Virus record (IMG/VR): IMGVR_UViG_3300020205_002237
Span: 1 to 59,432 of that record
Reading direction: 5' to 3' (one strand)
Length of the DNA: 59,432 bases
DNA from: a virus
Lineage: Duplodnaviria > Caudoviricetes
Shown piece by piece: positions 10,536 through 29,949 of the stretch. The stretch's first letter is position 1, and every line of letters begins with the position of its first letter. The position numbers were made by a program, and so were the translations under genes. The notes under the pieces were generated by a model, which saw nothing but the letters and a program-made list of their open reading frames with translations, was not told the origin of the DNA and ran no database searches.

Positions 10536-10841
10536 TTACCCTCCAAAAAATAGATTAACAAAATAAGCTCCGGCTACTCCACCACCTTCGGCAGCTTCTC
10601 CTGCTGGGCCTGTAGGTCCTGTTGGACCTGTGGTGCCGTTAACACCAATAGTACCGTTTGCTCCAGCAGGACCTGTTGGCCCTGCAAGACCGCTTTGACT
10701 TACCCAGGCAGTACCATTTGACATTAGTAAATTACCTGTGGGTCCTGGGCCTGTAACTCCAGTACCACCTTTAGACGGTCCTAGGATACCTTGTGCGCTT
10801 AGGCCTTGTGCTAGCTTACCTAAATATGCTGCTATACTCAT
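10536..10841 (-). CDS. short collagen adapter protein
   Basis: MSIAAYLGKLA..SKGGTG N-terminus, GPT triplets, LFFGG C-terminus. Confidence 0.75.
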   Translation of the reverse strand: MSIAAYLGKLAQGLSAQGILGPSKGGTGVTGPGPTGNLLMSNGTAWVSQSGLAGPTGPAGANGTIGVNGTTGPTGPTGPAGEAAEGGGVAGAYFVNLFFGG

Positions 10842-10875
10842 AGTGTTCCTTTAAATACCTAGGATATATATCCGA

Positions 10876-11118
10876 TTATTGTGCCGACTGTAGTGCGGAT
10901 AGTTGAACTTCTAAAGCTGTTTTATGCAATTGTGCTTTACGTTGTTCTAATTGACTAAAAGCAATTACTCGTAGTATATGTGCTTTATATTCTGTCATAG
11001 TAGCATCGTCTCCAATATTATCAACAACATGTTGGTTTGTTGTAATATCCAATCCATAACGATCTATTTCTTCACTACGTGCTTCAATAGCACTTGTTAA
11101 ATATTCGATCTTATTCAT
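10876..11118 (-). CDS. small helical hypothetical protein
   Basis: AAGGA SD; amphipathic helices; follows propeller-like gene. Confidence 0.65.
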   Translation of the reverse strand: MNKIEYLTSAIEARSEEIDRYGLDITTNQHVVDNIGDDATMTEYKAHILRVIAFSQLEQRKAQLHKTALEVQLSALQSAQ

Positions 11119-11130
11119 TAATTTTCCTTG

Positions 11131-12294
11131 TTAATTTGTTACTGTACCAAAGGCTACAGTATGTGCATTAGCTAAACCTACTGGCATAGTAGTAACACTG
11201 CCAAACCCTGTGGTATTATCCCATGCTAAAGCTACATCTGAACCACCTCCAGTGCTAGCGCTGTTAAATACTAGTAATTTATCGTCAGGAGAGATTTCTA
11301 CATTTGCAGTAGTGCCTCCACTCCAAGTAAATCCGCCTGTATCAGCAAATTTAGCACCTATTCCATTTGTATCGTCCCATTGATAAGCTACTATAGGTAT
11401 TGCATTACTAGTTAAGAAGAATATAACGTTGCCAGCATTGTTCCAAAATATTCTATACGTTGTGCTAAGAGGTGTGCTATAGTTGGCATAACTATACTCA
11501 GCACCATAATAAGTATCAGCGCTCCACCTAAATATTCTGATTCTAGGGTTTCCTGAACCTAGTCCTATACCTATAGCGGCTCCACTAGGACTCCAGGAAA
11601 CATTATACGTATTTCCTCCTGTACTACTAATACTAGCAGGGGTTGGAACACTACCACTACTAGTGCCATCACTATTTATTCTGTATAAGTATACTATACC
11701 ACCACTAGCACTATTTCCGCTGCCATAAAAATTACCGTCTGGGGATATACTTGGGCGCTTATCACCACTGGATGGATAATTGTTAAGATTAGCAGCTTGT
11801 GAAAAAGTACCAAATGTTTTAGCTACTGGATCATATGAAATACTACATAACCTACCTTGAATATCTGAACTCCACCACCATAATCTGTCTGCTATAGGCG
11901 ATGCTTTTAAAGTACTACCTCCTGGTGGATAGGTAATAGTAGGGGTAGCATACGTCGAAACTATGCCACCTGCTTTTGTAAATTCATATCCAATAACATT
12001 TCCACTTGTTGCAAAGAATAAGGCTCTACCAGCTCGGTCCCAGGTACTGCCTCTAAACGCATTAGTTGCAGGAGGTGTATAAGTACTATAAGCAAGAGCA
12101 GAGCCTGTCCATGCAAATAGTAAAGTAGGGCTAGTTTGTTGAGATATATGTAATACTGTGTAAAATTCTTGTGGCCATTTACGTTGAGTTTGATATTGTG
12201 TAATTTGGTTTTGTGTCCACGAACCTTTGCCATTTAAAAAAGTTACTGTAGGAGCAGTAGTTCGGATATATCCACCAGGTCTTGTTAGTGCCAT
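11131..12294 (-). CDS. beta-propeller-like putative receptor-binding protein
   Basis: About 45-aa periodic SISPDG/SWSPSG/FWNNAG/EISPDD blade-like motifs. Confidence 0.6.
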   Translation of the reverse strand: MALTRPGGYIRTTAPTVTFLNGKGSWTQNQITQYQTQRKWPQEFYTVLHISQQTSPTLLFAWTGSALAYSTYTPPATNAFRGSTWDRAGRALFFATSGNVIGYEFTKAGGIVSTYATPTITYPPGGSTLKASPIADRLWWWSSDIQGRLCSISYDPVAKTFGTFSQAANLNNYPSSGDKRPSISPDGNFYGSGNSASGGIVYLYRINSDGTSSGSVPTPASISSTGGNTYNVSWSPSGAAIGIGLGSGNPRIRIFRWSADTYYGAEYSYANYSTPLSTTYRIFWNNAGNVIFFLTSNAIPIVAYQWDDTNGIGAKFADTGGFTWSGGTTANVEISPDDKLLVFNSASTGGGSDVALAWDNTTGFGSVTTMPVGLANAHTVAFGTVTN

Positions 12295-12303
12295 ACATGC
12301 TCC

Positions 12304-12675
12304 TTAACTGATTTCTTCCCAACTAGCTACAATTGTCAAGTAGTTAGCTGAGGCTGCTGTCACGCCAATAGATTGATTTTCTAATAAGTATATAGAGTTT
12401 GATTTATCTATTAACAACATTGCAGCATTAGCAGGAATACCAATTGCATTAACTAATAAATAATTTGTTCCGCCTAGTGCAGCTGCACTGTTAAGGTTAA
12501 TAGTTAAATTTACTGTACTAGTATGACTGTTAGCCGCATTAATTAAGTTGATTTTAAAAATCTTACCGCTTCCTGCGGGATTACTAATTAATTGTGTTGC
12601 TGAAGTAGTTGTTAAACTTACATAACCATTGTTGCCATATAAGTTTGTTGCAGAAGCTATATTTGGATTAGCCAT
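12304..12675 (-). CDS. MA(A/N)PN-family connector paralogue 2
   Basis: Paralogous to 10177-10533 and 24206-24577. Confidence 0.75.
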   Translation of the reverse strand: MANPNIASATNLYGNNGYVSLTTTSATQLISNPAGSGKIFKINLINAANSHTSTVNLTINLNSAAALGGTNYLLVNAIGIPANAAMLLIDKSNSIYLLENQSIGVTAASANYLTIVASWEEIS

Positions 12676-12684
12676 GTATGTTCC

Positions 12685-13065
12685 TTAAATATTTAAAATA
12701 TAGTATTTTAAGCCTCCGCCACCACCGCCCGCTGCAGCGGGACCTGTTGGCCCTGTTATTCCTGCGGGCCCGGTGGGTCCTGTTGCACCGTCAACGCCTA
12801 TTGTACCATTTGTTCCTTGTGGACCTGTGGGCCCAGTAGGACCTGTTGCTCCATCAACACCTATTGTGCCATTTGTTCCTTGAGGGCCTGTTGGACCGGT
12901 AGGGCCCATAGCCCCACCTTGACTTACCCAAGCACTTCCGTTAGAAACTAATACATTTCCGCTAGCACCTGGGCTTGTTACACCTGTGCCACCTTTTGAG
13001 GGGGGCACTACGCCGTCAGCACTAAGCACTGAGGCGAGTTTTGATAAGTATCTTGCTATACCCAT
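12685..13065 (-). CDS. short collagen adapter protein
   Basis: [18 protein letters not shown]-terminus, [12 protein letters not shown] triplets; paralogue of 10536-10841. Confidence 0.75.
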
Positions 13066-13074
13066 TTGTGATCC

Positions 13075-16000
13075 TTATTTTGTTAACAATGCCGATGAGG
13101 GCGGTGTAAAGTTTGCTGTGTAACGTGCAAAACGGCTAATGCGTAAATCGTCAATATAACCATTTAAAAAGTTAGTTGTGCTGCCCCTAGAACCAACATA
13201 CAGTGGTTTTGTAGCATCACCTAATGTTCCGGAAAAAGTCAGGGGAGTGCCAACAGATACTCCGTCAACATATAATTTTAAAGAAGTTCCATTTCTAACT
13301 CCAGCAATATGATACCAAGTATTAACAACAGGAGTAGGACCAGTGATATATGAATTAGCACTACTAGGATAAAACTGAAACGTACCGTTTGCCGTTTTTA
13401 ATATCATCCAATCTGTACCAACATTAGAAATATAATTACCAACAATATCCACTTCAGTTGATACACTATTAAAATATACCCAAAATTCAACAGTATAATC
13501 TCCCGTATACTGAAAATTAGGACTAGCGGGTATTCTTAAAGTATCACCAGTTCCATCAAAATACATCGAACTTGAGCCGTATTTTTTTACCGCAGTTGAA
13601 ATTCTAGCATCACCCACAGTTTCCAACACAGTTTTACCTGACTTGTCACTAACCGCAGATCTTTCACCATTTATTAGCAAAACAGTGTTAGTACCAGCTT
13701 GAAGTGGTGTTTGTGGTGGTACAAAGTTGCTGGTATAAAGTGCTTGACCTTTGGTAATACGCAGGTCGGTGATAAAACCGCCCCAAGGACTGCCAGTGCC
13801 TTCACCACCAATGTTTAGTGTACCAGCACTATAATCTGTACTGACAGTTGCAGTTGCTACATTTACTCCATTAACATATCCTGTAAGTGTAGTTCCGGTT
13901 CGCACAAATGCTATGTGATTCCAACTATTACTAGGAATAATTGCGCTTACTGCCCACTGATTTGAGGCACCAACCCAAAACTCAAGCCCACCGCTAGCAT
14001 TTACAAATATACGCAGACCACTTCCGCTACTATAAGATATAATAGTATCAAATGTAGTTGAACGTTTGTATATCCAGCACTCAATAGTAAAGTTGCCTGT
14101 ACCTATTAAGTATGCTGGCGATGTTGGCAGTGCTAGGTAATCGCTACCTCCATCAAAGTATGCCGAACCGCCAAAAGTAGTGGGTGTGTAATCTTGTGCG
14201 CTTGAAGTTGTTGACCCAAATGGGTTTTGACGACGTGGTTTTGCATCACCGAACGCATTTACGGTAAATTGATTAGCACTGTTGTCTATTAATGTTGATG
14301 ATTGGCAAGTTAATAGTTGCGTATTTGTAACGGCGGTTAATGGTGTTGTAGGGGGTGTAAAGTTGGTTGTATAAATTGCAGTGCCTTTGACAGCTCGTAC
14401 ATTTGAAAAATATCCAGTATTGTAAGTTGCGCCACCGGGGTTTTTACCAATCCAGACAGCATTACCGCCACAAAGAAAATTAGTACTGTTTGTCACTGAG
14501 CCTGACTGCACACCATTAATAAACATTTTTAAAGTTGTACTACTTCTAGCAACCGCAATGTGATTCCACGCATTTAAAGTTAACGCTATAGATGAAGTTA
14601 TAAATACGGTTACATTATCATTAACAGTGGGTGTTAATCCTGAAGTTTGTTGGTCTATTCTAAAATCACCACTATTAGCTCCAGTACCAAAATATCCGCA
14701 AAATGCAGGTTGCGTTGCTGTGGGGTAAACCCACATTTCAACTGTAAAATCTCCAGTACCAAACGCTAAAGCAGCACTACCTGTAGTTGGATTTAAATAA
14801 TCTCCGTTACCATCAAAATACACACTGTGTGACAGTGGAGTTTGCGTAACCAAGCTAAATGGTGAGAACTTTTGTATGCTTGTGTCACCGACTTTTGTGA
14901 TAGTAAAGTTGTTTATACTGTCATCAATAACACGATTGTTTGCACAGGTTAATAAACTTGTATTTGTGATAGTGGTTAAAGGAGAAGTTGGAACAGTCAA
15001 TGTTGTTAGTGTTGGATCATAAACGGCAGTGCCTTTAACAAGTCTAATATTACTTATGTGCCCACTAAAGAAAATAGCTGCTGATCGTTCTGTACCAATG
15101 AGTATTTGATTAGCTGTATTACTATACGTAGTAGAATTTCCTGTTATTGCAGAAATACGAGTTCCGTTTTGGAATAAGCTTACATTTGTTCCACTTTTAA
15201 CTATTGCTAGATGCACCCATTGGTTGTTAGGAAGAGTAGTGCTTGGAGAGAAAAATAATGTACTGCCAGACACTTCAACATTTACTGAGTTATTAACTAT
15301 TACCATTTGCCAACCTGTAGCGGCACCGCCACCTTTTGCAACAAGACCGGTATAGTTGGTCTGATTTCCAGTTGAGTACACCCACATTTCAATAGTAAAA
15401 TTTCCAACCCATAAATCTAAGGCAGTATTGTGGGGTACGCTTAAATAATCTCCACTACCATCAAAGTAGTTAGACCAATTGGCTCCATATGGACTAAACG
15501 AACCTTGTGTGGTGTTGCCAAAACGTGTGATTGGGCCACTAAGTGTTGAGTTATCAACAAATTGACTATTGTTTGTGGGTTGATGGGTTTGGCAGGTTAG
15601 TAACTGTGTGTTTGTGATGGCTGTTAATGGTTGAGTTGGCGGTGTAAATGCCGCCGTATAAACAGCAGTTCCTTTAACTATACGTGCATTAGAGATATAT
15701 CCTGTTACGTACTCAAAATTACCTGCGCCGTTACGACCAATAGCTACCGTCTCAGTTGAGTCAGTTATTACTAGTGCACCCATGTTTACATCTGGGCCTT
15801 TAACACCGTTAACGTATACGTTTACCATTGCACCATTGCGAACTCCAGCAAGGTGATACCATTGATTAGTTACTAGTGCTGTACCAAAAGTAGAAGTGTA
15901 CATTGATCCACCATAACCTACTGATGCTGTTGGAAATGCTGTACCATTTAAACCAAGTATAAAACTCATTGAGCCTTGACTACCTGCAGCATTACAAGTG

Positions 16001-17850
16001 CCGATGAATACTTGTTGAGCTAGACCTGTTAAATAAACCCAACATTCAATAGTAAAGTCTCCAGCTCCCATTGTAAAAGCCGGATTATCAGGCACGCTTA
16101 AATAATCACCAGTACCATCAAAATGTGCACTACCGTATGCGGCATACGTTGCATTAGGAGTAAACGGTTGAAATCCGCTAACAGCCACATCACCAGTTTT
16201 GGTAAGAACAAATGCATTAGTTGAGTTATCCACAAAACGATTTGACTGGCAAGTTAACAAACTTGTACCACTAATAGCAGTTAGTGGTGCTATAGGCGGT
16301 GTAAAGTTAGCAGTATAAACTGCAGTACCTTTTACAATACGAAGATTGCTTAAATACCCAGTAGTACCATATGATACACCATCATAACCGTTAGCAAACA
16401 AAATAGGTCTGTTTGTTTGAGCAGGATAATTTAGTGTATCTGCATAAGTACTACCAACTTGAGTACCGTTTACATATAGTTTTGTTTGGTTGGTAGACTT
16501 AACTAGCGCTACATGAGTCCATTGTTTTCCAACAACTGCTCCAGCACTGGAAGCAATAAGCACAGTAGCACCCTGATAGGTTACATACCTTATAGTTCCG
16601 TCACTTGTTACGTCAATATAAATTCGGTTTGTTGCCGACGCAACTCCACCAGGATTCGTGTCTAGTATTACAATTGGCAAAGTGCTTGCATAAAACCAAG
16701 TTTCAATCGTAAAGTCAGCAGTTCCAAAGTTTATACAACTACCATTTCCAGTTACCACCAAACTATCACCAGCACCATCTCCATAATATGAGTAATAACC
16801 AGGCGTATAAGGATTAAATTTAGTAGGCTTTGCGTCACCAAAAACTGTTACAGGAAAGTTGTTTGTTGAAGCATCTGTTGCAAAGGGTACTAGGTCATTT
16901 TCTGCATTTAATAACAGTGTGGTCAGCGGAAAGTATGTGTCCGCAGCAATTGAAACAGTCCAAGTAATAGTTTGTTGTGCAGTTTTACCAGTAACTGCAG
17001 CTGTAGCAGTTGCTGTAGTAATAGTTGCGCCAGCCACAGTAGGAGTTCCACTAACGGTTGTACCACTAAGTGTTAAACCTGTGGGCAATGTATCCACAGC
17101 ATAGCTTACAGTTTGACCAGCAGCCGATGTGGCTGCAAGCGTTGTTGTTGAAGCAACATTTTGTGGTAGTGATATGGTATTTGCGCTAGACCAAGAGACC
17201 ACATCTGGGTTAATGGTTAAACTGAACTGTCTGTCCGTGTCTTGATTTTCTGCATCAGTAGCACGAACTGTAAATGTATAAGTTGTAGAACCGCCTACTA
17301 GGGGGCTTGTGCCCGAAATAGTTCCCGAGGCGTTGATTGTAACGCCCGATGGCAATGTGCCTGATACAACTGAATAAGTTACAGCTGAATCGCTGGTAGC
17401 ACTCACAGTTGTAGAAACTGCTGAAGTTTCGTAACCGGTGCCAAGTGTACCTGCAGCTGTTGACCAGGCTGGAACGCCCGAATACTGAATACCAGGCACT
17501 GCAATTGCAGTTGATCCATCTAAGTTAACCACATACAAAATATAGCTACCTGCAGCTAAGGCAGGTGCTGTGAATGTGATTTGTGTTGCACTCACAACTG
17601 TGACAACACTGACTTGGGTTAAATTGATCAGAACCTTAGCACCTGAAGCAAAATTTGTACCTGTTAGGGTAATTGTGGCTCCGCCAGCTGGGTTGGTTGC
17701 GGTATCATCGCCCAAATACCCGATTGCGGAGATTGTGGGAGTACTACTACCTGCTCCTGTTGTGGTACCGGTACCGCCTTTGGCAGCACTTAATATTCCC
17801 TCAGCACTTAAGCCGTCTGATAAATTTACTAGTCGTTGTGCTATGCTCAT
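13075..17850 (-). CDS. IPT/TIG + putative Ig repeats + six LamG domains adhesin
   Basis: GGATITLTGTNF (IPT), LPSGVTINASGTISGT (putative Ig), six S.Y(F)DG.GD.L...FT.E.W repeats. Confidence 0.88.
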   Translation of the reverse strand: MSIAQRLVNLSDGLSAEGILSAAKGGTGTTTGAGSSTPTISAIGYLGDDTATNPAGGATITLTGTNFASGAKVLINLTQVSVVTVVSATQITFTAPALAAGSYILYVVNLDGSTAIAVPGIQYSGVPAWSTAAGTLGTGYETSAVSTTVSATSDSAVTYSVVSGTLPSGVTINASGTISGTSPLVGGSTTYTFTVRATDAENQDTDRQFSLTINPDVVSWSSANTISLPQNVASTTTLAATSAAGQTVSYAVDTLPTGLTLSGTTVSGTPTVAGATITTATATAAVTGKTAQQTITWTVSIAADTYFPLTTLLLNAENDLVPFATDASTNNFPVTVFGDAKPTKFNPYTPGYYSYYGDGAGDSLVVTGNGSCINFGTADFTIETWFYASTLPIVILDTNPGGVASATNRIYIDVTSDGTIRYVTYQGATVLIASSAGAVVGKQWTHVALVKSTNQTKLYVNGTQVGSTYADTLNYPAQTNRPILFANGYDGVSYGTTGYLSNLRIVKGTAVYTANFTPPIAPLTAISGTSLLTCQSNRFVDNSTNAFVLTKTGDVAVSGFQPFTPNATYAAYGSAHFDGTGDYLSVPDNPAFTMGAGDFTIECWVYLTGLAQQVFIGTCNAAGSQGSMSFILGLNGTAFPTASVGYGGSMYTSTFGTALVTNQWYHLAGVRNGAMVNVYVNGVKGPDVNMGALVITDSTETVAIGRNGAGNFEYVTGYISNARIVKGTAVYTAAFTPPTQPLTAITNTQLLTCQTHQPTNNSQFVDNSTLSGPITRFGNTTQGSFSPYGANWSNYFDGSGDYLSVPHNTALDLWVGNFTIEMWVYSTGNQTNYTGLVAKGGGAATGWQMVIVNNSVNVEVSGSTLFFSPSTTLPNNQWVHLAIVKSGTNVSLFQNGTRISAITGNSTTYSNTANQILIGTERSAAIFFSGHISNIRLVKGTAVYDPTLTTLTVPTSPLTTITNTSLLTCANNRVIDDSINNFTITKVGDTSIQKFSPFSLVTQTPLSHSVYFDGNGDYLNPTTGSAALAFGTGDFTVEMWVYPTATQPAFCGYFGTGANSGDFRIDQQTSGLTPTVNDNVTVFITSSIALTLNAWNHIAVARSSTTLKMFINGVQSGSVTNSTNFLCGGNAVWIGKNPGGATYNTGYFSNVRAVKGTAIYTTNFTPPTTPLTAVTNTQLLTCQSSTLIDNSANQFTVNAFGDAKPRRQNPFGSTTSSAQDYTPTTFGGSAYFDGGSDYLALPTSPAYLIGTGNFTIECWIYKRSTTFDTIISYSSGSGLRIFVNASGGLEFWVGASNQWAVSAIIPSNSWNHIAFVRTGTTLTGYVNGVNVATATVSTDYSAGTLNIGGEGTGSPWGGFITDLRITKGQALYTSNFVPPQTPLQAGTNTVLLINGERSAVSDKSGKTVLETVGDARISTAVKKYGSSSMYFDGTGDTLRIPASPNFQYTGDYTVEFWVYFNSVSTEVDIVGNYISNVGTDWMILKTANGTFQFYPSSANSYITGPTPVVNTWYHIAGVRNGTSLKLYVDGVSVGTPLTFSGTLGDATKPLYVGSRGSTTNFLNGYIDDLRISRFARYTANFTPPSSALLTK

Positions 17851-17866
17851 ATTTTAATTCCTTTTA

Positions 17867-18925
17867 TTAGGCTACAAATGAGCCACTTGTGGTAAATACG
17901 TGTGTGGTATAACCATTAGCAGTACTTGCTGTGCCGCCTGTGCCTTTTTGAGCACCTAAATACCGAATGATAACAATACCAGAACCACCAGCTCCGCCTA
18001 TACCACTACCATTACCGCCACCGCCTCCACCACCGCCTGTGTTTGCTGTACCCGCTGTACCGCTTGTAGAGCCGCTACCTCCATTGCCACCGCCGCCAGT
18101 ACCGCCAGTACCGCCTGCAACATCATAGCTACCGCCAGCACCACCGCCTGCATAGTATACAGAAGATCCTGAAAAAGTAGAAATTGTACCTATTCCACCA
18201 TTACCAGTAGAACCAGATGCACCTATGGCTCCAGAACCTCCGCCACCTCCACCTCGATTAGCAATCGCTGTACCACCATCATAACCTTGACCAGCAGTGC
18301 CAGTACCACCAGCACTGCTACTGTGTCCACCGCCACCAGCAGATCCGCCATTAGCACCAGTGGCAGCTTTTGTGCCACCACCTCCGCCGCCTAAGGCAAT
18401 AGCAATAGTGCCTAACGAACTATTAAATCCAGAAGTTCCTCTAGTACCGGTTGGTGTAGTATTAGGTGCGGCTGGGCCTCCGGCACCTACTGTAATTGTT
18501 ATAGGTGTTCCAGGAGCTATTAAATATCCAGTTGATGTTAATAGGCCTCCGGCTCCACCACCACCTGCACCGTCATAACCACCTCCACCACCACCTGCAA
18601 CAACTAAATAATCTATAGTATAAGATCCGCTACTTGAAAATCCAAACCATGACGAATAATTTTCACTATACCACTCAGGATAACCTAAAGTAGTATTCAT
18701 TCTAACCATGCCGGTATTTGGAGATACGGGTCGTTGAGCAGTTGTACCTGCAGGCAAATCAAAATATCCTGTACTGGTATTAGCCTGATCACTTACTGCA
18801 CTAGGGGTAGATGCTCCACCACTTGCTCCTGCTTTGGACCAAGCAGTCCCATTGTAGGTCCAAGTAATTGAATTATATGTATAGGTTTGATTTAGTGTTG
18901 GATTTAAAGGAAATGAAATTGCCAT
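17867..18925 (-). CDS. glycine-rich domain fibre protein
   Basis: MAISFPLNPT N-terminus, DLPAGTTAQRP module, YLVVAGGGGGG...GSGIVIIRY domain. Confidence 0.8.
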   Translation of the reverse strand: MAISFPLNPTLNQTYTYNSITWTYNGTAWSKAGASGGASTPSAVSDQANTSTGYFDLPAGTTAQRPVSPNTGMVRMNTTLGYPEWYSENYSSWFGFSSSGSYTIDYLVVAGGGGGGYDGAGGGGAGGLLTSTGYLIAPGTPITITVGAGGPAAPNTTPTGTRGTSGFNSSLGTIAIALGGGGGGTKAATGANGGSAGGGGHSSSAGGTGTAGQGYDGGTAIANRGGGGGGSGAIGASGSTGNGGIGTISTFSGSSVYYAGGGAGGSYDVAGGTGGTGGGGNGGSGSTSGTAGTANTGGGGGGGGNGSGIGGAGGSGIVIIRYLGAQKGTGGTASTANGYTTHVFTTSGSFVA

Positions 18926-18927
18926 AG

Positions 18928-20280
18928 TTATTGAAACCTATATCTAATTATTACAACACCGGAACCGCCAGCACGATTGCTTCCGCCATTACCAGTATTA
19001 GCAATACCAGCAGTTGCATTTGCACCCCGAGCACCAGCTGCATAAGTAACAACGGTACCAGTAATGGAATTTGCTAAACCAGGGCCTGGAAGCCACGAAT
19101 TAGCAGCACCTCCGGCTCCGCCACCGGCACCTACGTCCCAGCCATTATTTGAGTTTCCTCCTGGTGCGGCACCTCCAGCATAGCCTTGGCCTGTAGTTCC
19201 AGTACCTCCAGCCCCACCAAAGTCACCGCCTCCACCACCTGATCCACCAGATCCGCCGTTTTGGTTTCGTGTTCCGCCATATCCACCACCAATTGTAGTT
19301 AAACCAAATGCTGATGAATTTCCGCCTTGTGTTCCATTTGAACCTGCTCCAGCATTAGTAACATCTGGTCCAGTACCTTGTGCACCACCTGCACCAACTG
19401 TAATTGTGTATGTTTGAGCAGTAGGAGTAATTGTTCCAGTTAAAAGACCGCCAGCACCGCCACCGCCACCCACGTCCATGTCTGTTCCACCGCCTCCTCC
19501 GCCTGCAACTATTAAATAATCAATAGTTGTACCTATAGGTACGATGCTTGGCGTAAAAGTTCCACTACTAGTAAAAGTTAAAACTCTATAATTACCATCA
19601 GCAGTAGCTGTTGCTCCACTATACGTTGCAGTCATCATTGCGCCTGCATATTGTAGTTGTACCCAGTTACCACTATTATAAATCTCTAAATAATCAGTAG
19701 TAGTATTAAGTCTCATTGAGCCAATTGCTGGTGAACTAGGACGTTGCGCTGTAGTTCCTGACGCTATTGGCAAATAACTTGTAGCTGTGGCTATTTTTGC
19801 TGGAGTAACTGCGCTATCTGCTAGCATAGCAGTTGTAATAGAGCCATCCGCAGGAGTAGAACTTCCACCGCCACCGCCTGCTAAAATCCAAGCACCGCCT
19901 GCATATATATTTAAATCGCCTGTTTCTGAATTTAACCAAAAAGCCCCATCAGTAGGGCTTGCAGGAGCAGATGCTGAAACTGTTGCTGCTCCACCCCCTA
20001 AACCTGTCCAACTAGTACCGTTATATGTTTCTACAATACTTAATGTACTGTTATAACGAACCATACCTGTATGGGCAGATCCAGGGCGCTGTCCAGTTGT
20101 TCCACTAGGCAAATCAAAGTAACCAGTACTAGTATTAGTCTGATCACTAACTCCTGCAGGAGTAGCACTAGTAACTACAGCAGCTAAACTAGTAGCTCCG
20201 GTTCCACCTTTGTCAGCACTTAAAACTCCATTTGAGTCTAAGCCTTCTGCTAATTTTGCTAATCTAGATGCTGTACTCAT
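18928..20280 (-). CDS. glycine-rich domain fibre protein
   Basis: MSTASRLAKLA N-terminus, two GTT.QRP modules, AP.SP.DG.FWL motif, Gly-rich domain ending YRFQ. Confidence 0.8.
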   Translation of the reverse strand: MSTASRLAKLAEGLDSNGVLSADKGGTGATSLAAVVTSATPAGVSDQTNTSTGYFDLPSGTTGQRPGSAHTGMVRYNSTLSIVETYNGTSWTGLGGGAATVSASAPASPTDGAFWLNSETGDLNIYAGGAWILAGGGGGSSTPADGSITTAMLADSAVTPAKIATATSYLPIASGTTAQRPSSPAIGSMRLNTTTDYLEIYNSGNWVQLQYAGAMMTATYSGATATADGNYRVLTFTSSGTFTPSIVPIGTTIDYLIVAGGGGGGTDMDVGGGGGAGGLLTGTITPTAQTYTITVGAGGAQGTGPDVTNAGAGSNGTQGGNSSAFGLTTIGGGYGGTRNQNGGSGGSGGGGGDFGGAGGTGTTGQGYAGGAAPGGNSNNGWDVGAGGGAGGAANSWLPGPGLANSITGTVVTYAAGARGANATAGIANTGNGGSNRAGGSGVVIIRYRFQ

Positions 20281-20296
20281 AGTACTCCTTTACTTA

Positions 20297-20659: not shown

Positions 20660-21891
20660 TATTGAAACCTATATTTAATTACTACGATACCGGAACCACC
20701 TGGTGCTCCGGGTCCAATTGAGTGAGATCCACCCCCTCCGCCACCGCCGGTATTGGCTCCACCAGCACCTCCACCAACGTTTGGTCCTCCACCAGTGCCA
20801 CCAGCTATACCGTCTACGCCGTTGTTTATACCACCAGTACCGCCTAGACCAGTGCTTCCTCCTCTAGGGCCTCCGCCTCCGCCTCCGCCCTGACCGCCGT
20901 TACCGCCATACACAGAGTAACCGCCTCCGCCACCACCGCCACCCCAGTAATAGCTGGTACCGGTAATGGTATTAATTACGCCTATTCCACCATTGGCTGG
21001 ATTTGTTGTACCTGCAGCACCAGCACCACCACCGCCACCTGGATACCATTGACCAATTGAGTTTCCACCAGGATTACCTTGACCAGATGTACCTAATCCA
21101 CGATTTGTATTCTGGCCAGATGCTCCACCGCCTGAACCACCGTCTGCAGCTGGAGCTCCGGTTCCATTATGAATGGATGCTCCACCACCTCCACCAATAG
21201 AAGTAACTAGGGCTGAGCCTGATGTTATTGTTGAGTTTGTTCCACTTACTCCCCGTACAGTTGGTGTACCTGCAGCACCGCCAGCACCTACTGTAATAGT
21301 GTACAAACCTGGAGTTATTACTAATCCAGAGCCGGCTAAAACACCTCCGGCACCTCCACCTCCACCCATGTCACCACCGCCTCCACCACCACCGCCTACT
21401 ACAAGATATTCGATTGTTGCATTACTTGGAGCAGATACTACTTGGAAATTTCCACTAGACAAAAATGTGTGAATTTTATAGTCGCCTTGAATAGTAGCTA
21501 CACCACCAGTTGCTGAAATATATCCAAAGTATTGAACTGGATTCCAGGCACTAGCACTATATACTTCTAGTGAATTATTAGTTGTGTTTATTCGAGTGTA
21601 TCCTGTACTAGGGCTTGCAGGACGTTGTGCAGTTGTACCTGATGGTAAATCAAAGTAACCTGTGCTTGAATTGTCTTGATCACTTACTGCTGTGGGTGTT
21701 GTAGTTATTGTACCCCAACTAGTACTAGTGCCGTTTGTTGTTAAATATTTTCCGGAATTACCAGTTTGTGTTGGAAAAGCTGAAGCAGCTGTAGGGGATT
21801 TTGTCCAGCCCTTACCATTATACGTCCAAGTTACTGAGTTATAAGTATAAGTCTGGTTTAATGTGGGATTTAAAGGAAATGAAATCGGCAT
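20659..21891 (-). CDS. glycine-rich domain fibre protein
   Basis: MPISFPLNPT N-terminus, GNSGKYLTTNG motif, DLPSGTTAQRP, Gly-rich domain ending YRFQ. Confidence 0.8.
   Translation of the reverse strand: MPISFPLNPTLNQTYTYNSVTWTYNGKGWTKSPTAASAFPTQTGNSGKYLTTNGTSTSWGTITTTPTAVSDQDNSSTGYFDLPSGTTAQRPASPSTGYTRINTTNNSLEVYSASAWNPVQYFGYISATGGVATIQGDYKIHTFLSSGNFQVVSAPSNATIEYLVVGGGGGGGGDMGGGGGAGGVLAGSGLVITPGLYTITVGAGGAAGTPTVRGVSGTNSTITSGSALVTSIGGGGGASIHNGTGAPAADGGSGGGASGQNTNRGLGTSGQGNPGGNSIGQWYPGGGGGAGAAGTTNPANGGIGVINTITGTSYYWGGGGGGGGYSVYGGNGGQGGGGGGGPRGGSTGLGGTGGINNGVDGIAGGTGGGPNVGGGAGGANTGGGGGGGSHSIGPGAPGGSGIVVIKYRFQ
21557..21654. repeat. 98-bp exact direct repeat, copy 1 (copy 2 at 22816-22913)
   Basis: Read base by base; an additional 34-bp identity at 21506-21539 / 22765-22798 has the same 1259-bp offset. 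Confidence 0.85.
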
Positions 21892-21893
21892 AA

Positions 21894-23252
21894 TTATTGA
21901 AACCTATACTTAATTATTACGATACCAGATCCACCAGTACCACCGTAGTTGTTTGAATTGTAGTGTGCACCACCGCCTCCACCACCTCCAGTATTGGCTC
22001 CGCCATTACCGCCAGGAACGTTTGTTTGTGAATTTAGTGATCCTACTGTACCAGGAAGTCCTGGATTAAGTCCACCAGTGCCTCCATTACCAGTAGTGCC
22101 GCCTTTAGGCGCTCCACCTCCACCACCACCTTGACCGCCATTACCACCATAAGTACTATAGCCACCACCACCACCGCCACCGCCCCAATAGTAATTTGTA
22201 CCATTGATTGCGTTTTGAATTCCAATACCGCCATTAGCAGGATTATTTGTACCAGCTCCACCAGCACCACCACCACCACCTGGATAATAATCGCCAGCAC
22301 CTATGCTACCGTTATAACCCTGTCCAGCAGTACCTAATCCAAAAGATGTAGATGCAGATCCTGCGGCACCACCGCCACTACCCCCACTGCCTGCTGGAGA
22401 ATTATTATTTGAATATTCGGAAGCTCCGCCACCTCCGCCAAGTGCAGTTACAAACGAGCTACCTCCACTGGCACCGATAACACTATTTGAGCCATTAGTG
22501 CCGCGTACTTGACTAATACCTGCCGGGCCGCCTGCTCCGCCTGCCCCTATTGTAATATAATACATAGCTGCGGATACTACTAGGTTGTTTGCTGCTAACA
22601 CGCCTCCAGCACCACCTCCGCCACCCATGTCACTTCCACCCCCACCGCCACCCGCAACTACAAGATATTCAATTACTGCATTAGCAGGAGCACTAGTAAC
22701 AGTAAAATTATCGCTAGATAAAAAAGTATGGAGTTTATAGTCGCCAATAGTAGTAATTACACCGCCAGTTGCTGAAATATATCCAAAGTATTGAACTGCA
22801 TTCCATGCATTAGCGCTATATACTTCTAGTGAATTATTAGTTGTGTTTATTCGAGTGTATCCTGTACTAGGGCTTGCAGGACGTTGTGCAGTTGTACCTG
22901 ATGGTAAATCAAAAGCTCCTGTACTTGTGTTATTTTGGTCGCTAACAGCTGAAGGGACTACACTAGTTATAGTCGGTTTATCTGTTAAGTCGTTGTAACT
23001 ACCGCTGAAACTTGGCCCAGAATTAATACCTGTTAAAATCCAGTTTCCGCCACCGTATACATAAAGATCGCCACTTTCGTTTTCTAACCACATTGCCCCA
23101 TCTGTGGGACTTGCGGGTGCTGTAGCGCTTGCTGTAACTGAAGCTCCGCCAGTAGAATCTTTAGCCCAACCTTTACCATTAAACTTCCAAATATTACTAT
23201 TAAATGTGTATGTTTGATTTAGTGTTGGGTTACTAGGGAATGAAAAAGCCAT
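21894..23252 (-). CDS. glycine-rich domain fibre protein
   Basis: MAFSFPSNPT N-terminus, AP.SP.DG.MWL motif, FSGSYNDLTDKP, Gly-rich domain ending YRFQ. Confidence 0.8.
   Translation of the reverse strand: MAFSFPSNPTLNQTYTFNSNIWKFNGKGWAKDSTGGASVTASATAPASPTDGAMWLENESGDLYVYGGGNWILTGINSGPSFSGSYNDLTDKPTITSVVPSAVSDQNNTSTGAFDLPSGTTAQRPASPSTGYTRINTTNNSLEVYSANAWNAVQYFGYISATGGVITTIGDYKLHTFLSSDNFTVTSAPANAVIEYLVVAGGGGGGSDMGGGGGAGGVLAANNLVVSAAMYYITIGAGGAGGPAGISQVRGTNGSNSVIGASGGSSFVTALGGGGGASEYSNNNSPAGSGGSGGGAAGSASTSFGLGTAGQGYNGSIGAGDYYPGGGGGAGGAGTNNPANGGIGIQNAINGTNYYWGGGGGGGGYSTYGGNGGQGGGGGGAPKGGTTGNGGTGGLNPGLPGTVGSLNSQTNVPGGNGGANTGGGGGGGAHYNSNNYGGTGGSGIVIIKYRFQ
22816..22913. repeat. 98-bp exact direct repeat, copy 2
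   Basis: Identical to 21557-21654. Confidence 0.85.
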
Positions 23253-23267
23253 ATTTATCCTTTATTA

Positions 23268-24206
23268 TCAGCCACTAAAACTTAAGGTGCCAGATGAAGT
23301 AAATGCATAGTAATAATATCCACTGGATATTGTTAAAGTGGGAGCTCCTGTTACGGTAGCCGCAGGAAAAGTAGTAGGGTAACGAATTACTACTAAGCCG
23401 CTGCCGCCTGGACTGCCGATATTACCTTCAGTCTGTCCACCACCGCCACCGCCACCTGTATTAGTTAATCCAGATGTTGATATATCTGGGCCGCCTCCTC
23501 TGCCGCCTCCACCAATTCCGCCTGGTCCATTGCCTCGAATATACCAGTGGCCACCACCTCCACCGCCACCGTAATAACCTTTACCTGACACAGAAGCGTT
23601 TGAATTACTTACATCAGTTCCATACATATTAAAAGCCGAAACTAATACTCCAGGGCCACCTTGACGAGGATAAGTAGCATCACCATAGGAATATCCTTCA
23701 CCGCCTGCACCACCGCCAGAGCTACCCCAACCATTGCCTGCCCACCCTGCGCCTGGCCCATAACCGTTTCCAGATGTGCCACCGGCACCTGCGGCATTTG
23801 CACCACCAGTTCCACCAGTTGCTGTATTAACAGTAGTTGCACCGCCGTATAAAATTGAGGAGTTTCCACCTGAAGTAGAACTACTACCACTAGTGCCACC
23901 TGCAGCCACAGTGATCACTAAAGTTTGCGTTAGTGGCAATTCTTGAGAAAACGTTCCAGTATTTACACCACCACCGCCTCCGCCACCACCGCCATAAAAA
24001 GTACCGCTGCCCTGGCCACCACCGCCACCGCCACCAACAACTAAATAATTGATTGATGTTGGAGCAGGAGGTACTAAGGGAGCTGCAGATAATTTTCTTA
24101 CTACCTTTATACCAGCTCTAGCCATATTCCAGATACCGTTGGCAGCAAAAAGACTTAAAGCACTTGTGCTTGTGTTTAACAACCCACCACGATATCTTTT
24201 AGTCAT
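23268..24206 (-). CDS. glycine-rich domain protein
   Basis: MTKRYRGGLL N-terminus; YLVVGGGGGGG...GSGLVVIRY...YAFTSSGTL. Confidence 0.8.
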   Translation of the reverse strand: MTKRYRGGLLNTSTSALSLFAANGIWNMARAGIKVVRKLSAAPLVPPAPTSINYLVVGGGGGGGQGSGTFYGGGGGGGGGVNTGTFSQELPLTQTLVITVAAGGTSGSSSTSGGNSSILYGGATTVNTATGGTGGANAAGAGGTSGNGYGPGAGWAGNGWGSSGGGAGGEGYSYGDATYPRQGGPGVLVSAFNMYGTDVSNSNASVSGKGYYGGGGGGGHWYIRGNGPGGIGGGGRGGGPDISTSGLTNTGGGGGGGQTEGNIGSPGGSGLVVIRYPTTFPAATVTGAPTLTISSGYYYYAFTSSGTLSFSG

Positions 24207-24577
24207 TAGCTTATATCCTCATAACTTACTGTTACTACAAGTGCATTTGCCGTTCCAGCAGTAGCACCTAAACTAGAATTTTCTTCTAGGTAGTATTGAC
24301 TTGACTTATCAATTACATTGATTGTTGAATTTGCTGCCACAGACAGTGTGCCTACAATTGCAAAACTAGTTCCGCCTAAGGCAGCTCCCGTGTTAAATAC
24401 AACTGTTACAGTTGCTGCCGTACCTGTGGTGTTACTTACGTTTAAAGTATTAACTTTTAAACATTTACCACTACTAGCGGCATTACTTAGCACACTAGTG
24501 GCACTAGTTGTTGTTAAACTAGTGCCACTTGTTTTGCCTGTTATTGTTGTTGCTCCAATTAAATTTGGTGCTGCCAT
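24206..24577 (-). CDS. MA(A/N)PN-family connector paralogue 1
   Basis: Start reassigned to ATG 24577 (GGAGG SD; matches paralogue starts). Confidence 0.75.
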   Translation of the reverse strand: MAAPNLIGATTITGKTSGTSLTTTSATSVLSNAASSGKCLKVNTLNVSNTTGTAATVTVVFNTGAALGGTSFAIVGTLSVAANSTINVIDKSSQYYLEENSSLGATAGTANALVVTVSYEDIS

Positions 24578-24578
24578 G

Positions 24579-27500
24579 TTATCCTCCAAATATCAGCGAG
24601 TAACCTATTGCTCTTGCTGTTGTAGTGCCTGGACCTGTTGGGCCTATTGCTCCGGTTGATCCGGTTGCTCCGGTTGCTCCGTTTGTTCCAGCCGGACCTT
24701 GTGGTCCTTGACTACCAGAAGCTCCAACGGCAATAACCCACTCAGTGCCTGTGTATATAAAAAATTCGCCAGTAGTAGAATCCAGCCAAAACTGACCAGA
24801 AGTAGGAGTAGCTGGTGCAGTATCTCCTACATAGGCTGTCCCGTTTGCTCCAGCAGGACCTGTTGCTCCAGTTGGACCTGTTGAGCCTGCTGTACCATTA
24901 GTACCTGCTGGACCTGTAGGACCGCCTGCTGGTCCTGGGGCACCTGTTGGACCTACCGGACCGTCGCCCATCATTTCGCGAACTACAATCTCTTGACCAG
25001 CTTCTGGTGCAACTAAAAATGTTAGTGTAGTTCCGCTTAATGTGTAATCACTAGTAGGTTTAAGCAAAGAACCGTTAGCTACAACTAAAAGACTGTCTAC
25101 AGTATATCCACTATTAATAGTAAATGCTGTTGTAGTGCCATTTCCAGTAAAGCTTTCTGTTACTACTTGGAAAGGTAAACCTGTTCCACTAATACCTTGT
25201 GGGCCTGTGGCTCCTGTTGGACCTGTAGCTCCATTAACCCCAACAGTTCCATTAGTTCCTGCTGGACCTGTTGGACCATCACCACGCATTTCACGCACAA
25301 CAATGTCTTGAGAATTACCAGGTGCAATAGTAAATGTTAATGTTGATCCGCTAACAGTATAATCACTGGTTGGTTTTAACACAACTCCGCTAACGGTAAC
25401 CAGTATATTATCTACTGTGTATCCGCTGTTAATTGTAAAGTTTGTAGTACTTCCATTACCTACAAAACTTTCAGTAACTACAGTAAATGTAGTACCAATA
25501 GCTCCTGGACCTGTTGGACCTGCTGTACCTTGCGTACCTTGTATACCTTGTATACCTTGCACGCCTTGAGAACCTGTTGGCCCAGCAACTCCTGTGGGAC
25601 CTGCAATACCTTGAGGACCTGTTGGACCTGTGGCACCATCAACACCTATAGTGCCGTTAGTACCTTGAGCACCTGTAGGGCCTGCAACACCTGTTGGGCC
25701 TGTAACGCCTTGAATACCTTGAGCACCTGTAGGACCTACAACACCTTGAGTACCTGTTGGACCTGCAACACCTTGTGAACCTGTTGGTCCTACAATTTGG
25801 CCTACATCTAAATAAGCACTTCCTGTCCAAGTATAGAGGTTACCGTCAGCAGTAACAATATAAGCATCTCCAACGCTAGCTCCACCTGGTAATGCACCAA
25901 CTGTAGCTACTTCGCCTTTGATATTTACTGAAGTTCCTGGTGCCCCTGTTGAGCCTGTTGGTCCTACAATACCTTGTGAGCCTGTAGGACCTGTAGTACC
26001 TTGTAAGCCCTGTGAGCCTGTTGGTCCTGCAATACCTTGAGGACCTGTTGGACCTGTGGCACCATCAACACCTATAGTGCCGTTAGTACCTTGAGCACCT
26101 GTAGGACCTGCAGCACCTGCTGAACCTGTGGGACCTACAACGCCTTGAATACCTTGAATACCTTGAATACCCTGTACACCTTGAGCACCTGTTGGACCTG
26201 CAGCACCTGTTGGACCTGCAGCACCTTGAGAACCCGTTGGGCCTGTAGCACCATCGCCCATCATTTCACGTACTACTATTTCGTGACCAGTTTTAGGCGC
26301 TGTAATAAATGTTAGAGTGCTACCGCTTAGTGTATAATCTGTTGTGGCTTTTAGTACAATACCGTTAACTACAACTAAAAGATTGTCTATAGTATATCCA
26401 CTATCAATTGCAAAATTGACTGTAGTATTATCCCCAGTAAAGTTTTTAGTTATAACAGTAAAAGGTAGTCCTGTACCACTTGCACCTTGTGGACCTGTTG
26501 GGCCAGTGCCACCTAGAATACCATTGGAACCTGCTGGACCTGTAGGACCTGCTACAGTTGAGGCAGCGCCTGTAGGACCTGTAGAACCTGTAGAGCCTGT
26601 TGGTCCGGTTGCTCCGTCTAAGCCAGCCGTACCATTAGTACCTTGTGGACCTGTTGCACCTTGAATACCTTGAATACCTTGAGAACCCGTTGGACCTGTA
26701 GCACCTTGAATACCCTGGATGCCTTGAGCACCTGTAGGACCTGTAAGACCTGTTGTACCTTGTGGGCCTGTAGGTCCATCACCAGTTAATTCGCGTACTA
26801 CAATTTCGTCGCCACTATAAGGCGTAACACCAAATGTTAATGTAGTTCCGCTTAGTGTATAATCTGTTGTGGGTTTTAGTAAAGATCCGTTGATTGTTAC
26901 TAGTATACTATCTAGCGTATATCCGCTGTTAACAGTAAAAGCTGATGCACTACCATCGCCAGTAAATGACTGAGTAGTCATTATAAAAGGAAAACCAGTA
27001 CCGCTTGGTCCTTGTGGACCTGTAGCACCTGTTGGTCCTAATGAACCTGTAGGTCCAGGTACTGTTGATGCAGCACCTGTAGTACCCTGTACGCCTTGTA
27101 CACCTTGAATACCTTGGGGACCTGTTGGTCCCACGTTACCTTGTATACCTTGTGAACCACTAGCACCTGTAGGTCCTATGGAACCTGTAGGACCCGCTAT
27201 TGTAGAATCAGCACCTGTTGGTCCTGTGTTACCTGTGTTACCTTGAACACCTGTTGGTCCTGCTACACCTTGAATACCTTGAATACCTTGTGTACCTTGT
27301 GCACCTGTAGGTCCTGCTACACCTTGAATACCTTGCGCACCTGTAGGACCTGTGGCACCGTCAACGCCTATAACACCGTTAGTACCCTGTGCACCTGTAG
27401 GTCCTTGAATACCTTGAATACCTTGTATCCCCTGTATACCTTGAATACCTTGTGCACCTGTAGGACCTGTAGCACCGTCAACACCTATAACACCGTTAGT

Positions 27501-29939
27501 ACCCTGTGCACCTGTGGGGCCTTGTGCACCTGTAGGACCTGTAACACCTTGAATACCTTGAGCACCTGTAGGTCCTGTAGCACCATCAACGCCTATAACA
27601 CCGTTGACGCCTTGAGCACCTGTAGGACCTGTTATACCTTGAATACCTTGAATACCCTGAATACCCTGAATACCCTGAATACCTTGTGCACCTGTAGGTC
27701 CTGTAGCACCATCAACGCCTATAACACCGTTGACGCCTTGAGCACCTGTAGGACCTGTAGGACCTACTGCACCTGTAGGGCCTGCGACGCCTTGAATACC
27801 TTGTGCACCTGTAGGGCCTGTAGCTCCATCAACGCCTATAACGCCGTTGACACCTTGAGCTCCTGTGGGTCCTGTAACGCCTTGAATACCTTGAGTACCT
27901 TGTGGTCCTTGTAGTCCGCTTGCTCCGCTAAGATCAATTGTATATGTATAGCTTGTGCCGTTCCATAAATACAGTCTAGAATCTTCTGGATTTTCTACGT
28001 TGCCTGTATTAATTACAGCAAACTGACCTGCAACAATTCCTGTAGGAGAGGTATCAGCTGTTAGTGCTGCTACGCTTGCGTAAGTTTTAGCAATTGCAAA
28101 TCCGAGACCTGTAGCACCTGTAGGGCCTGTAACGCCTTGAATACCTTGAACACCTTGTATGCCCTGAGCACCTGTGGGACCTGTAACACCTTGGATACCT
28201 TGAATACCTTGTGAACCTGTAGGACCTACTTCACCTTGAGCACCTGTTGGACCTGTAACGCCTTGAATACCTTGTGAACCTGTTGGGCCTGTAACACCTT
28301 GAATACCTTGTATACCTTGTATACCTTGTATACCTTGTATACCTTGTATACCTTGTGAACCTGTTGGCCCTACTTCACCTTGAATACCTTGAGCACCTGT
28401 TGGTCCTGTAACGCCTTGAATACCTTGTGCACCTGTTGGTCCTGTAACGCCTTGAATACCTTGAATACCTTGGATGCCCTGAATACCTTGAGCACCTGTA
28501 GGGCCTGTAACGCCTTGAATACCTTGTGCACCTGTAGGGCCGATATCACCTTGAATACCTTGTATACCTTGGGCACCTGTTGGGCCTACTTCACCTTGTA
28601 TACCTTGAACACCTGTTGAACCTGTAACACCTTGGATACCTTGAGCACCTGTAGGGCCTGTAACGCCTTGTATACCCTGTATACCTTGGATACCCTGGTC
28701 ACCAGTAGGTCCTGTAACACCTTGTATACCTTGAGGCCCTGTTGGACCTGTAACGCCTTGTATACCTTGTGAACCTGTTGGTCCTACTTCGCCTTGAATA
28801 CCTTGGATACCTTGGATACCTTGGATACCTTGTGAACCTGTAGGTCCTACTTCGCCTTGAATACCTTGAGCACCTGTTGGACCTGTAACACCTTGGATAC
28901 CTTGAGCACCTGTAGGACCTGTTGGGCCTACAACACCTTGTATACCCTGGATACCTTGATCACCTGTTGGACCTGTAACGCCCTGAATACCTTGTACGCC
29001 TTGTATACCCTGAATACCTTGAGCACCTGTTGGTCCTACAACGCCTTGAATACCTTGAATACCTTGATCACCTGTAGGTCCTTGCGGTCCTTGTGGACCA
29101 TCTGCTCCAGCTACACCAGCGGGTCCTGTTGGGCCGTCACCACCTTGTGGTCCTGGTACTGTAGATGCAGCACCTTGGACGCCAGATACACCAGCTGGAC
29201 CTGTTGGACCTGTGGGTCCTGTTGCTCCGTAACCAATACTTTGGCCGTCAACAACTAAGAATCCGCCACTAGCTGAAATAGGTGTACCACCCAAATCAAT
29301 TGTGTTAGCGCTAAAGTAGCCAGTTCTCCAACGTTTTGTTTGTGAACCAAGATCATATGTTTGATCTACAGCAGGTATTAAACTACCTGTTATAGTAGCA
29401 ATATTAATACCAGGATCGCCTGGATCACCTTTTGGACCTTGAAGTCCTGTACCAACTAAGTGGCCTGTTAGTTCCTTAATAACGATTTTTAGACCGCTAG
29501 GAGGTGCGCTAACAAAAGTAATGTATCCACTAGCTATCGAAAAATCAGTATTAGCATCTTGCGAAATACCACCAACAAATACTAAGAAACTTTCAGCGGT
29601 TATTCCTGGTGTAACTATATATGTAGTAGTACTACCATTACCAGTATAATATCTGGTATTGGCATTAAAAGCAGTACCACCTGGAGCTGCATTAACCCAG
29701 TTACTGCCGTTATATACTAGTGCCTGTCCGTTGACAGGGCTTGCGACTGTTACGTCTGATAAATTATCTAAGCTAATACTAGCTAAGTCTTTGAAAAACT
29801 TTACTGAATTATCAGATGCTTTAAAATAAATTCTGCCATCAGCATAATTAATGGCTAACTCGCCATACTCGAGATCACTTGTAACAGGAACTTTGCCTAC
29901 TACCGATGATTTCTTAAGAATAATCTTATTTGTTGCCAT
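24579..29939 (-). CDS. giant collagen-like fibre (1786 aa) with interspersed globular domains
   Basis: Hundreds of Gly-X-Y triplets ([12 protein letters not shown]); five copies of a ~65-aa (F/Y)TG.G...domain; ILKKS..GELAINY N-terminus. Confidence 0.9.
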
Positions 29940-29949
29940 AGTTAGCCCT

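Follow-up and report, generated by a model that had tools for sequence, protein, structure and literature searches.

A collagen-like trunk with repeated jelly-roll domains and a putative docking leader in the fibre gene cluster of a siphovirus

Branching through a gp10-like domain and an N-terminal peptide lets several well-studied phages carry multiple host-recognition proteins, and the resulting branched complexes serve as a template for host-range engineering in laboratory phages. In the tailspike TSP4 of phage CBA120, residues 179-250 constitute the domain XD2, and XD2 and XD3 are both jelly-rolls with adjacent first and last strands, three copies of which pack as a platform that binds the partner trimer on the side facing away from the chain ends; T4 gp10 behaves likewise with gp11 and gp12 (partial text of PMC8825819). 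Latka et al. described a "T4gp10-like domain plus conserved N-terminal peptide" scheme for G7C, K1-5 and many Klebsiella phages, in which PhiK64-1 combines a single anchor and four conserved peptides with five T4gp10-like domains (partial text of PMC6872550). Herein we analyzed the viral record IMGVR_UViG_3300020205_002237, where the window, i.e., the whole stretch of DNA under study (59,432 bases), is the entire record, a fragment with an estimated completeness of 57%. All of its genes lie on the minus strand, and its fibre gene cluster, placed after the tail genes, contains a 1786-residue collagen-like protein (24579-29939), hereafter the trunk, together with four proteins that share an N-terminal leader, hereafter plug A.

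Considering the fold of a domain repeated in the trunk, one complex prediction and the co-occurrence in relatives, we judged it plausible that the plug-A peptides dock on the repeated domains through a predicted contact to give a branched fibre, a reading which we hold to be slightly better than an even bet.

The collagen-like trunk and the shared leader

The trunk belongs to the Pfam family Collagen (PF01391), with 467.8 bits in 16 stretches against a cut-off of 27.2, has 1101 residues in G-X-Y runs, and also matched PHROG tail-fibre families. Five XD-type jelly-roll domains are inserted in it, namely four internal copies with a mutual identity of 59-71%, regarded as candidate sockets (domains 1 to 4 at 26766-26999, 26241-26474, 25266-25499 and 24951-25184), and one divergent N-proximal copy (residues ~87-165, 29445-29681), which is 37% identical to the internal ones. 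An earlier note on this DNA had recognized the four close copies and the divergent fifth at these places, and only its unit of ~65 residues had to be corrected to 78. When 37 domain copies were placed in a tree, the bootstrap of which had not fully settled, the internal copies of the window paired with the same-position copies of close relatives, domain 1 with its G003 orthologue (support 100/100), and domains 2 and 3 with the copies of L001 and G003 (88/81 and 88/96, respectively). The N-proximal copies of the window and four relatives formed a separate clade in the same tree (97/99).

The AlphaFold2 model of domain 4, the copy also used in the complex prediction described below, was a small beta jelly-roll of six strands (predicted local distance difference test, pLDDT, 94.0; predicted template-modeling score, pTM, 0.82), having strands 6-13 and 65-72 at its two ends and thus the adjacent terminal strands of an XD-type fold. 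The best structural match obtained with VIA-align was CBA120 TSP4 residues 187-250 (Z 9.2, root-mean-square deviation 1.6 Å, 64 aligned residues, 30% identity), accompanied by the N-terminus of T7 gp17 (7ey9_a, Z 8.8; 7boz_b, Z 8.4), chains from the portal/neck reconstructions of T5 and DT57C (Z 8.8 and 8.7) and T4 gp10 residues 156-252 (Z 7.4), and 18 of 1000 chains reached a Z of at least 8. Furthermore, the profile of a domain alignment of 92 copies, drawn from the window and viral contigs, matched PDB sequences of a K1 depolymerase (9k4a, E 1.1e-10), the cyanophage P-SCSP1u fibre (8i4m_e, E 5.5e-7) and a Klebsiella phage Kp7 tail chain (7y22_e, E 3.4e-6); TSP4 and gp10 were not among the best 60 of its 570 PDB matches. 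Judging from the model, the repeated domain shares the fold of known docking modules of branched fibre complexes, and the "socket" postulated in the earlier note thus has a direct published parallel in the docking of the XD and gp10 domains, which that note did not name.

Plug A, M(S/G).A..L..L...L...G......GGTG, forms the exact N-terminus of four proteins of the window. Two are mini-collagens with a hydrophobic C-terminal tail, of 101 residues (10536-10841, plug at 10737-10841) and 126 residues (12685-13065, plug at 12961-13065), which scored 19.9 and 25.6 bits, under the Pfam Collagen cut-off. The third is a 1591-residue protein (13075-17850, plug at 17746-17850) with He_PIG Ig-like domains and six Laminin_G_3 repeats (Pfam Laminin_G_3, E 1.4e-116, 6 stretches), and the fourth is a 450-residue protein (18928-20280, plug at 20176-20280) with hairpin repeats and Gly_rich_2. 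Over the 35 residues of the plug, the other three were 49-66% identical to the first (10536-10841), and a profile search of the whole record returned exactly these four matches (E 1e-22 to 4e-21). As a control for chance, the first 50 residues of 47 minus-strand open reading frames (ORFs) were compared all against all (1081 pairs) alongside 3000 shuffled pairs. Against a shuffled maximum of 47, scores of 74-177 were obtained for the six plug-A pairs and of 136-159 for the three pairs of another leader discussed below, plug B. The four plug-A N-termini reported by the earlier note were thus confirmed at their coordinates with scores far beyond the shuffled maximum. The only other N-terminal class above that maximum was formed by three small paralogues (102-128). 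A third leader class, suspected by eye in 23268-24206 and 6410-10177, gave no pair beyond it, and a common N-terminal motif expected for the trunk and the 511-residue protein encoded upstream did not rise above the null in the same test. Within plug A, M1, A4, L7 and G18 were invariant and L10 nearly so, and positions 5, 6, 8 and 12 were variable. A Pfam search with the N-terminal and hairpin segments gave nothing usable, the only hits being DUF7360 (E 0.033) and Collagen.

Further occurrences of plug A came from 7 plus 4 viral loci and from 42 loci of a metagenome scan that used a four-row alignment as query. Relatives contributed 13 further distinct plug-A N-termini, starting at residue 1 without exception, on quite different proteins, including mini-collagens, proteins of 140-157 residues, LamG giants of up to ~2100 residues and glycine-rich fibres. 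The leader of the 126-residue mini-collagen, for instance, also heads a 506-residue LamG/glycine-rich protein in G005, a 610-residue protein in L123 and a 217-residue protein in G010. As far as can be read from the sequences, plug-A leaders act like modules that can be exchanged. Diverged copies lacked the GGTG half and kept the first ~17 residues (437- and 470-residue proteins of G002 and a 596-residue protein of G005), and the GGTG half by itself recurred within large fibre ORFs of the unrelated records G011 and G012; these observations suggested that the specific part of the plug is the N-terminal stretch that takes part in the predicted interface.

A collagen bearing the domain was present in 21 of the 59 plug-A loci. 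In the other 38, the sequence upstream of the first plug is no longer than 5194 bases, and both loci that reach this length belong to a record with the collagen further upstream, so that, wherever the upstream sequence of the 59 loci sufficed, plug A was accompanied by such a collagen in every instance. With a trunk carrying five domains, four partners in the window and the 13 further N-termini on varied cargo, the cluster shows, at the sequence level, the architecture of an anchor-branch receptor-binding system.

Predicted docking of plug A and competing explanations

For the complex prediction, three copies of the domain and three copies of plug-A residues 1-45 were each supplied as an alignment. 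The interaction prediction score from aligned errors (ipSAE) was 0.80, 0.84 and 0.87 (median 0.84), and the best of three controls gave 0.12. Of 80 solved complexes, 58 reach the pass mark, as do 2 of 110 mismatched pairs, rates that are approximate here on account of the use of our own alignments and of multiple copies. The contacts agreed by at least 95% between runs, and the pLDDT of the partner was at least 73. The plug-A profile had no match among PDB sequences at E ≤ 10, and the pass was therefore not copied from a sequence-similar solved partner. The earlier note had envisaged N-terminal peptides docking on the domains of the collagen; with this one predicted pair, the idea gained support for plug A; the pairing of plug B with the AP motifs was not supported.

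The predicted interface was three-fold symmetric, involving residues 1-5, 7-9 and 11-12 of all three plug chains and residues 35-42, 45-46, 57-58, 61 and 63-65 of all three domains. From the strand order of the AlphaFold2 model and the predicted contacts, we infer that the domain residues concerned would form loops on the side facing away from the N and C termini, as in the XD platforms. In the domain, G38, L41 and D46 are nearly fixed. In particular, of the 24 internal copies that come from plug-A phages, 22 have L41, and Q takes this position in all four N-proximal copies and in 43 of the 52 non-collagen ones. The predicted interface positions as a whole varied more than the rest of the domain (1.49 vs 0.96 bits), and this pattern fits a common core with a variable rim, although loops vary in any case. 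The N-proximal copy carries other residues at the predicted interface positions (G37, Q41, E/D42, P61 and L64). Considering this difference and its own conserved clade, the divergent fifth domain is more likely to be the trunk's own anchor than a fifth socket.

In the mechanism proposed here, the cluster would be a host-adhesion module and the 1786-residue protein its trimeric trunk fibre, the triple helix of which would be broken four times by a 78-residue jelly-roll of the T4 gp10, CBA120 XD2-XD3 and T7 gp17-N type. Since entry and exit of the chain are on one side of the fold, three copies could form a knob beside the trunk with the free face turned outward. The leader M-S-I-A-x-Y-L-x-K-L-A-x-G-L, which heads the two mini-collagens, the six-LamG protein and the glycine-rich fibre, would dock on this free face with its first dozen or so residues, probably as three short amphipathic helices in a trimer, and the trunk would then bear side branches. 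The N-proximal copy, being of a distinct conserved type, probably fixes the trunk to the tail. This mechanism would not require one plug per socket, and the SFP..NPTLNQ leaders (plug B) would be a separate matter.

Several observations weigh against this mechanism. The complex prediction covers a single plug/domain pair in a setup that differs from the calibration of the tool, and, as solved complexes of XD domains with partners exist, it may have been aided by memory at the level of the fold. The Foldseek search of the PDB with the domain model gave no match at E ≤ 0.001 (best 3.6e-3), and Z values of 8-9 barely exceed the level of common small beta folds. Three of the five copies matched Pfam Phage_T7_tail (PF03906) at E ≤ 10, the best with 21.1 bits (E 2.6e-4) and hence below the curated cut-off of 25.2 bits for membership in the family. 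The domain is also generic: among its 203 confirmed relatives, 80 viral loci were kept, and no plug A was located within the fetched flanks of 77 of these, in which the domain occurred at N-termini, in tandem in small proteins or within other collagens. Moreover, the number of plug A was nearly constant, with four each in the window, G002, G003, G005, G010 and L123, and did not track that of the domains, as detailed below. Finally, these proteins are known from their genes alone, and their place in the virion is presumed.

Against this background, the domains could instead be registration or hinge nodes, or weak glycan-binding decorations, with plug A attaching elsewhere on the tail tip or baseplate, a possibility that we take seriously and nevertheless regard as unlikely. 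It would agree with the weak CBM_X2 matches in four of the five copies (best E 8e-4, below the cut-off), with the commonness of the fold among phage structural proteins that are not hubs, with the excess of domains over plugs in G005, and with the presence upstream of large tail proteins (33634-37767, 38114-40519 and 40528-44100) that lay outside the complex prediction. That prediction nonetheless passed with a wide margin over its controls, the solved structure nearest to the domain has a proven docking role, L41 sets the internal copies of plug-A phages apart, and plug A and the collagen stand together wherever the sequence permits a check. It appeared quite improbable that plug A is a mere leader for trimerization or assembly, for example a chaperone handle, kept through gene duplication and shuffling and never docking in the virion. 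The heptad-like spacing of A4, L7, L10 and L14 would suit such a role, as would the recurrence of leader residues 16-45 (GVL..SKGGTG..GN.L.S.G..W) inside the fibre ORFs of G011 and G012 and the small conserved genes of the cluster (20297-20659 and the three jelly-roll paralogues, described below). When the plug was kept and the domain replaced, however, the control scored 0.12, indicating that self-association alone does not yield the score; the helix part is retained even where the GGTG part is lost, and a leader on unrelated cargo is the pattern published for docking peptides (partial text of PMC6872550).

The earlier note had gone further and matched the counts, four plug A to four domains and three plug B to three AP motifs, which would imply one plug per socket in a fixed, multi-level tree. 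This is highly improbable as a rule. Defining a complete module as the stretch between the 511-residue gene upstream and the glycosyltransferase gene downstream, three modules had both numbers fully known: the window and G002 each have four plug A (two of those in G002 with the helix only) and four internal domains, and G005 has four plug A, apart from one more protein with the GGTG part only, and seven internal domains, each module having in addition one N-proximal copy. A fourth, G010, has four plug A to at least five internal domains in a collagen that is cut. The other relatives gave partial counts, namely G003 (four plug A, at least four internal domains), L118 (five, at least three) and G007 (two, at least two), in all of which the collagen is cut, L113 (at least four, with four internal domains, the locus ending there) and L123 (four plug A). 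As the plug-A number was four in all three fully known modules, it offered no spread for covariation. The seven internal domains of G005 fell into groups of three, two, one and one in the tree, and these four types against four plugs are suggestive of a match by type, a correspondence noticed after the fact, which together with the variable rim speaks for the matched counts; in G010, internal domains of five different types stand against four plugs. The collagen ORF of G005 (locus L013, 8669-14968) has eight domain copies in all, and its within-gene duplicates of three and two (support 100/98 each) suggest recent internal duplication of nodes. As for plug B and the AP motifs, the two share one pattern and the same proteins, and their numbers vary together simply since each glycine-rich fibre carries both, as described in the next section. 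A freer form of the idea, in which the trunk is an addressable scaffold ~300 nm long and each node type takes one leader type by way of a conserved core (A4, L7 and L10 of the plug against G38, L41 and D46 of the domain) and a variable rim, seems rather unlikely on the present evidence. If it were true, the kind and copy number of adhesins at each height could be changed by leader swaps or node duplication, giving an adhesin of bottle-brush form without a counterpart among the fibres described to date.

Plug B, neighboring genes and genomic context

Plug B, SFP.NPTLNQTYT, starts three Gly_rich_2 proteins of the window, with 352 (17867-18925), 410 (20659-21891) and 452 residues (21894-23252), and all three N-termini stood where the earlier note had placed them, with the pair scores given above. 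A fifth Gly_rich_2 protein, of 312 residues (23268-24206), has neither plug; the five proteins, including plug-A protein 18928-20280, belong to the family (PF21722) with 49.2-90.5 bits against a cut-off of 24.3. The three AP..P..G..W motifs, near the C-terminus of the trunk (24738-24815), in the fourth plug-A protein (19888-19965) and in the 452-residue plug-B protein (23040-23117), were likewise found, and the number three depends on a narrow pattern, since the AP profile matched six sites in the window, including the motif LP.GTTAQRP found in all four long glycine-rich fibres. An hhalign comparison of AP with LP.GTTAQRP..P..G..R.N gave E 1.2e-4 and a probability of 55%, and that of plug B with AP aligned the two in register without significance (E 0.048, probability 1%). 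Plug B and the AP motif share the pattern P..P..[GN]..[aromatic], after which comes a hairpin that ends in Y.G..W, and in the protein 21894-23252 they occupy residues 6-29 and 46-71, 16 residues apart. In relatives, the plug-B profile also matched internal sites, and the number of N-terminal plug B was two in L141, three in most and four in L138, with the AP-family matches varying alongside from 4 to 7, a covariation that is uninformative on docking because both motifs reside in the same proteins. Plug B and AP were both absent from G002, G005, G007 and G010. A docking of plug B on the AP motifs was thus not borne out, given one shared hairpin pattern, the same proteins and internal profile matches for each; judged on their motifs, plug B and AP are read as repeats of a fibre-shaft motif in a single hairpin-repeat family.

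The gene directly after the trunk gene encodes a small jelly-roll protein (24206-24589) with paralogues at 12304-12675 and 10177-10533. The three are 118-127 residues long and 32-42% identical, and each directly follows a collagen-like gene with a hydrophobic C-terminal tail; this order is kept in L001, L002, L004, L005, L007, L012, L113, L121, L123, L138 and L141-L143. The family had 5572 homologues at E ≤ 0.001, none of which is named or has a Pfam domain. Its model was a confident jelly-roll of eight or nine strands (pLDDT 89.7) that had no Foldseek match in the PDB at E ≤ 0.001; a wide search gave generic jelly-rolls only, with Z 9.1 for both a Haloferax virus turret protein and the KHP40 cement protein. 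These small proteins may serve as a chaperone or as a fibre tip encoded in a gene of its own. A 120-residue protein of PHROG 7759 (20297-20659; function unknown, E 1.8e-32) is 73-90% identical in close relatives and always lies amid glycine-rich fibre genes, immediately preceding the plug-A gene for a glycine-rich protein or, in L113 and related loci, a plug-A gene for a collagen-like protein. Two proteins, of 387 (11131-12294) and 80 residues (10876-11118), are encoded between the mini-collagen units; neither had a Pfam match, the former also lacking a PHROG match, and both are conserved in L005 and L121 (84% and 71% identity).

The downstream edge of the fibre cluster is marked by a glycosyltransferase gene (3178-4224; PHROG 13126, E 3e-102), the product of which is 83-95% identical in relatives with fibre genes diverged to 20-60%. 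Upstream of the cluster are a portal gene, a fused protease/major-head gene, and the genes of a major tail protein and of large tail proteins. The fused gene is a single 646-residue ORF for prohead protease and major head protein (54875-56815), which showed 33-35% identity to T5-like siphoviruses, e.g., Vibrio phage Ceto and Escherichia phage DaisyDussoix, and the features annotated under the match in such phages were the protease and the major head protein. By these gene comparisons, the source of the window is a siphovirus with T5-like head genes. The guanine plus cytosine (G+C) content was 45-48% over the glycine-rich and collagen genes (18000-30000) against 35-41% in most of the record, and the G+C skew of the plus strand was strongly negative there, both of which are most simply explained by the codon make-up of proteins rich in Gly, Pro and Ala.

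Comparison with described branched fibres

The corresponding domain of T7 gp17 is situated at the fibre N-terminus and binds the adaptor/nozzle. The repeated domain of the trunk has the same fold (Z 8.4-8.8) and a weak Pfam match in three of five copies, with the difference that only the N-proximal copy is comparably placed and that the score is under the Pfam cut-off. CBA120 TSP4 and T4 gp10 have the same jelly-roll, there in series on a trimeric chain and offering partner trimers a trimeric face (partial text of PMC8825819). In those phages, two or three domains stand at the N-terminus of a myovirus tailspike or baseplate protein, whereas the present trunk has four, and that of a relative up to seven, distributed along ~1100 residues of a siphovirus collagen helix. 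The partners in Ackermannviridae dock via a TD1 domain or another XD2 and not via a short helix, at least in the available part of the description (PMC11414711). The anchor-branch systems, such as G7C gp66/gp63.1, K1-5 and the KP32 and PhiK64-1 types, follow the same logic of a docking domain and an N-terminal peptide with unrelated partners, as far as their published outline goes; their partners are depolymerase tailspikes and their hubs are not collagen-like, and plug A is likened to their conserved peptides by description alone, its sequence matching no solved chain. The siphoviruses DT57C and DT571/2, which are T5-like and have L-shaped, branched tail fibres (LtfA/LtfB), are comparable in that a second fibre protein joins via the first by means of 45 N-terminal residues (partial text of PMC4728585). 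They employ two proteins and one branch point, whereas the present cluster has several nodes on a collagen trunk and no fewer than four candidate branches.

If the predicted contacts are real, the known scheme would reach past the hub types of the cited papers and take in the collagen-like trunk of an uncultured lineage of siphoviruses, a concrete role would be gained by the globular interruptions that are frequent in collagen-like proteins of phages, and an XD-type node together with an N-terminal helix could serve as an annotation rule for the genes of one fibre. A literature search of partial coverage, which does not prove the combination to be unpublished, found no paper joining "collagen-like" with "gp10-like" among the papers listed. 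The branching principle itself is not new, having been described for CBA120, G7C, T4, Klebsiella phages and the T5-like DT57C (partial texts of PMC4728585 and PMC10713586). What is new here, by comparison, is a collagen trunk with several nodes and non-enzymatic cargo, in that the docking module seems to be threaded repeatedly through the collagen helix and its likely cargo consists of glycine-rich fibres, mini-collagens and lectin-like LamG arrays rather than enzymes.

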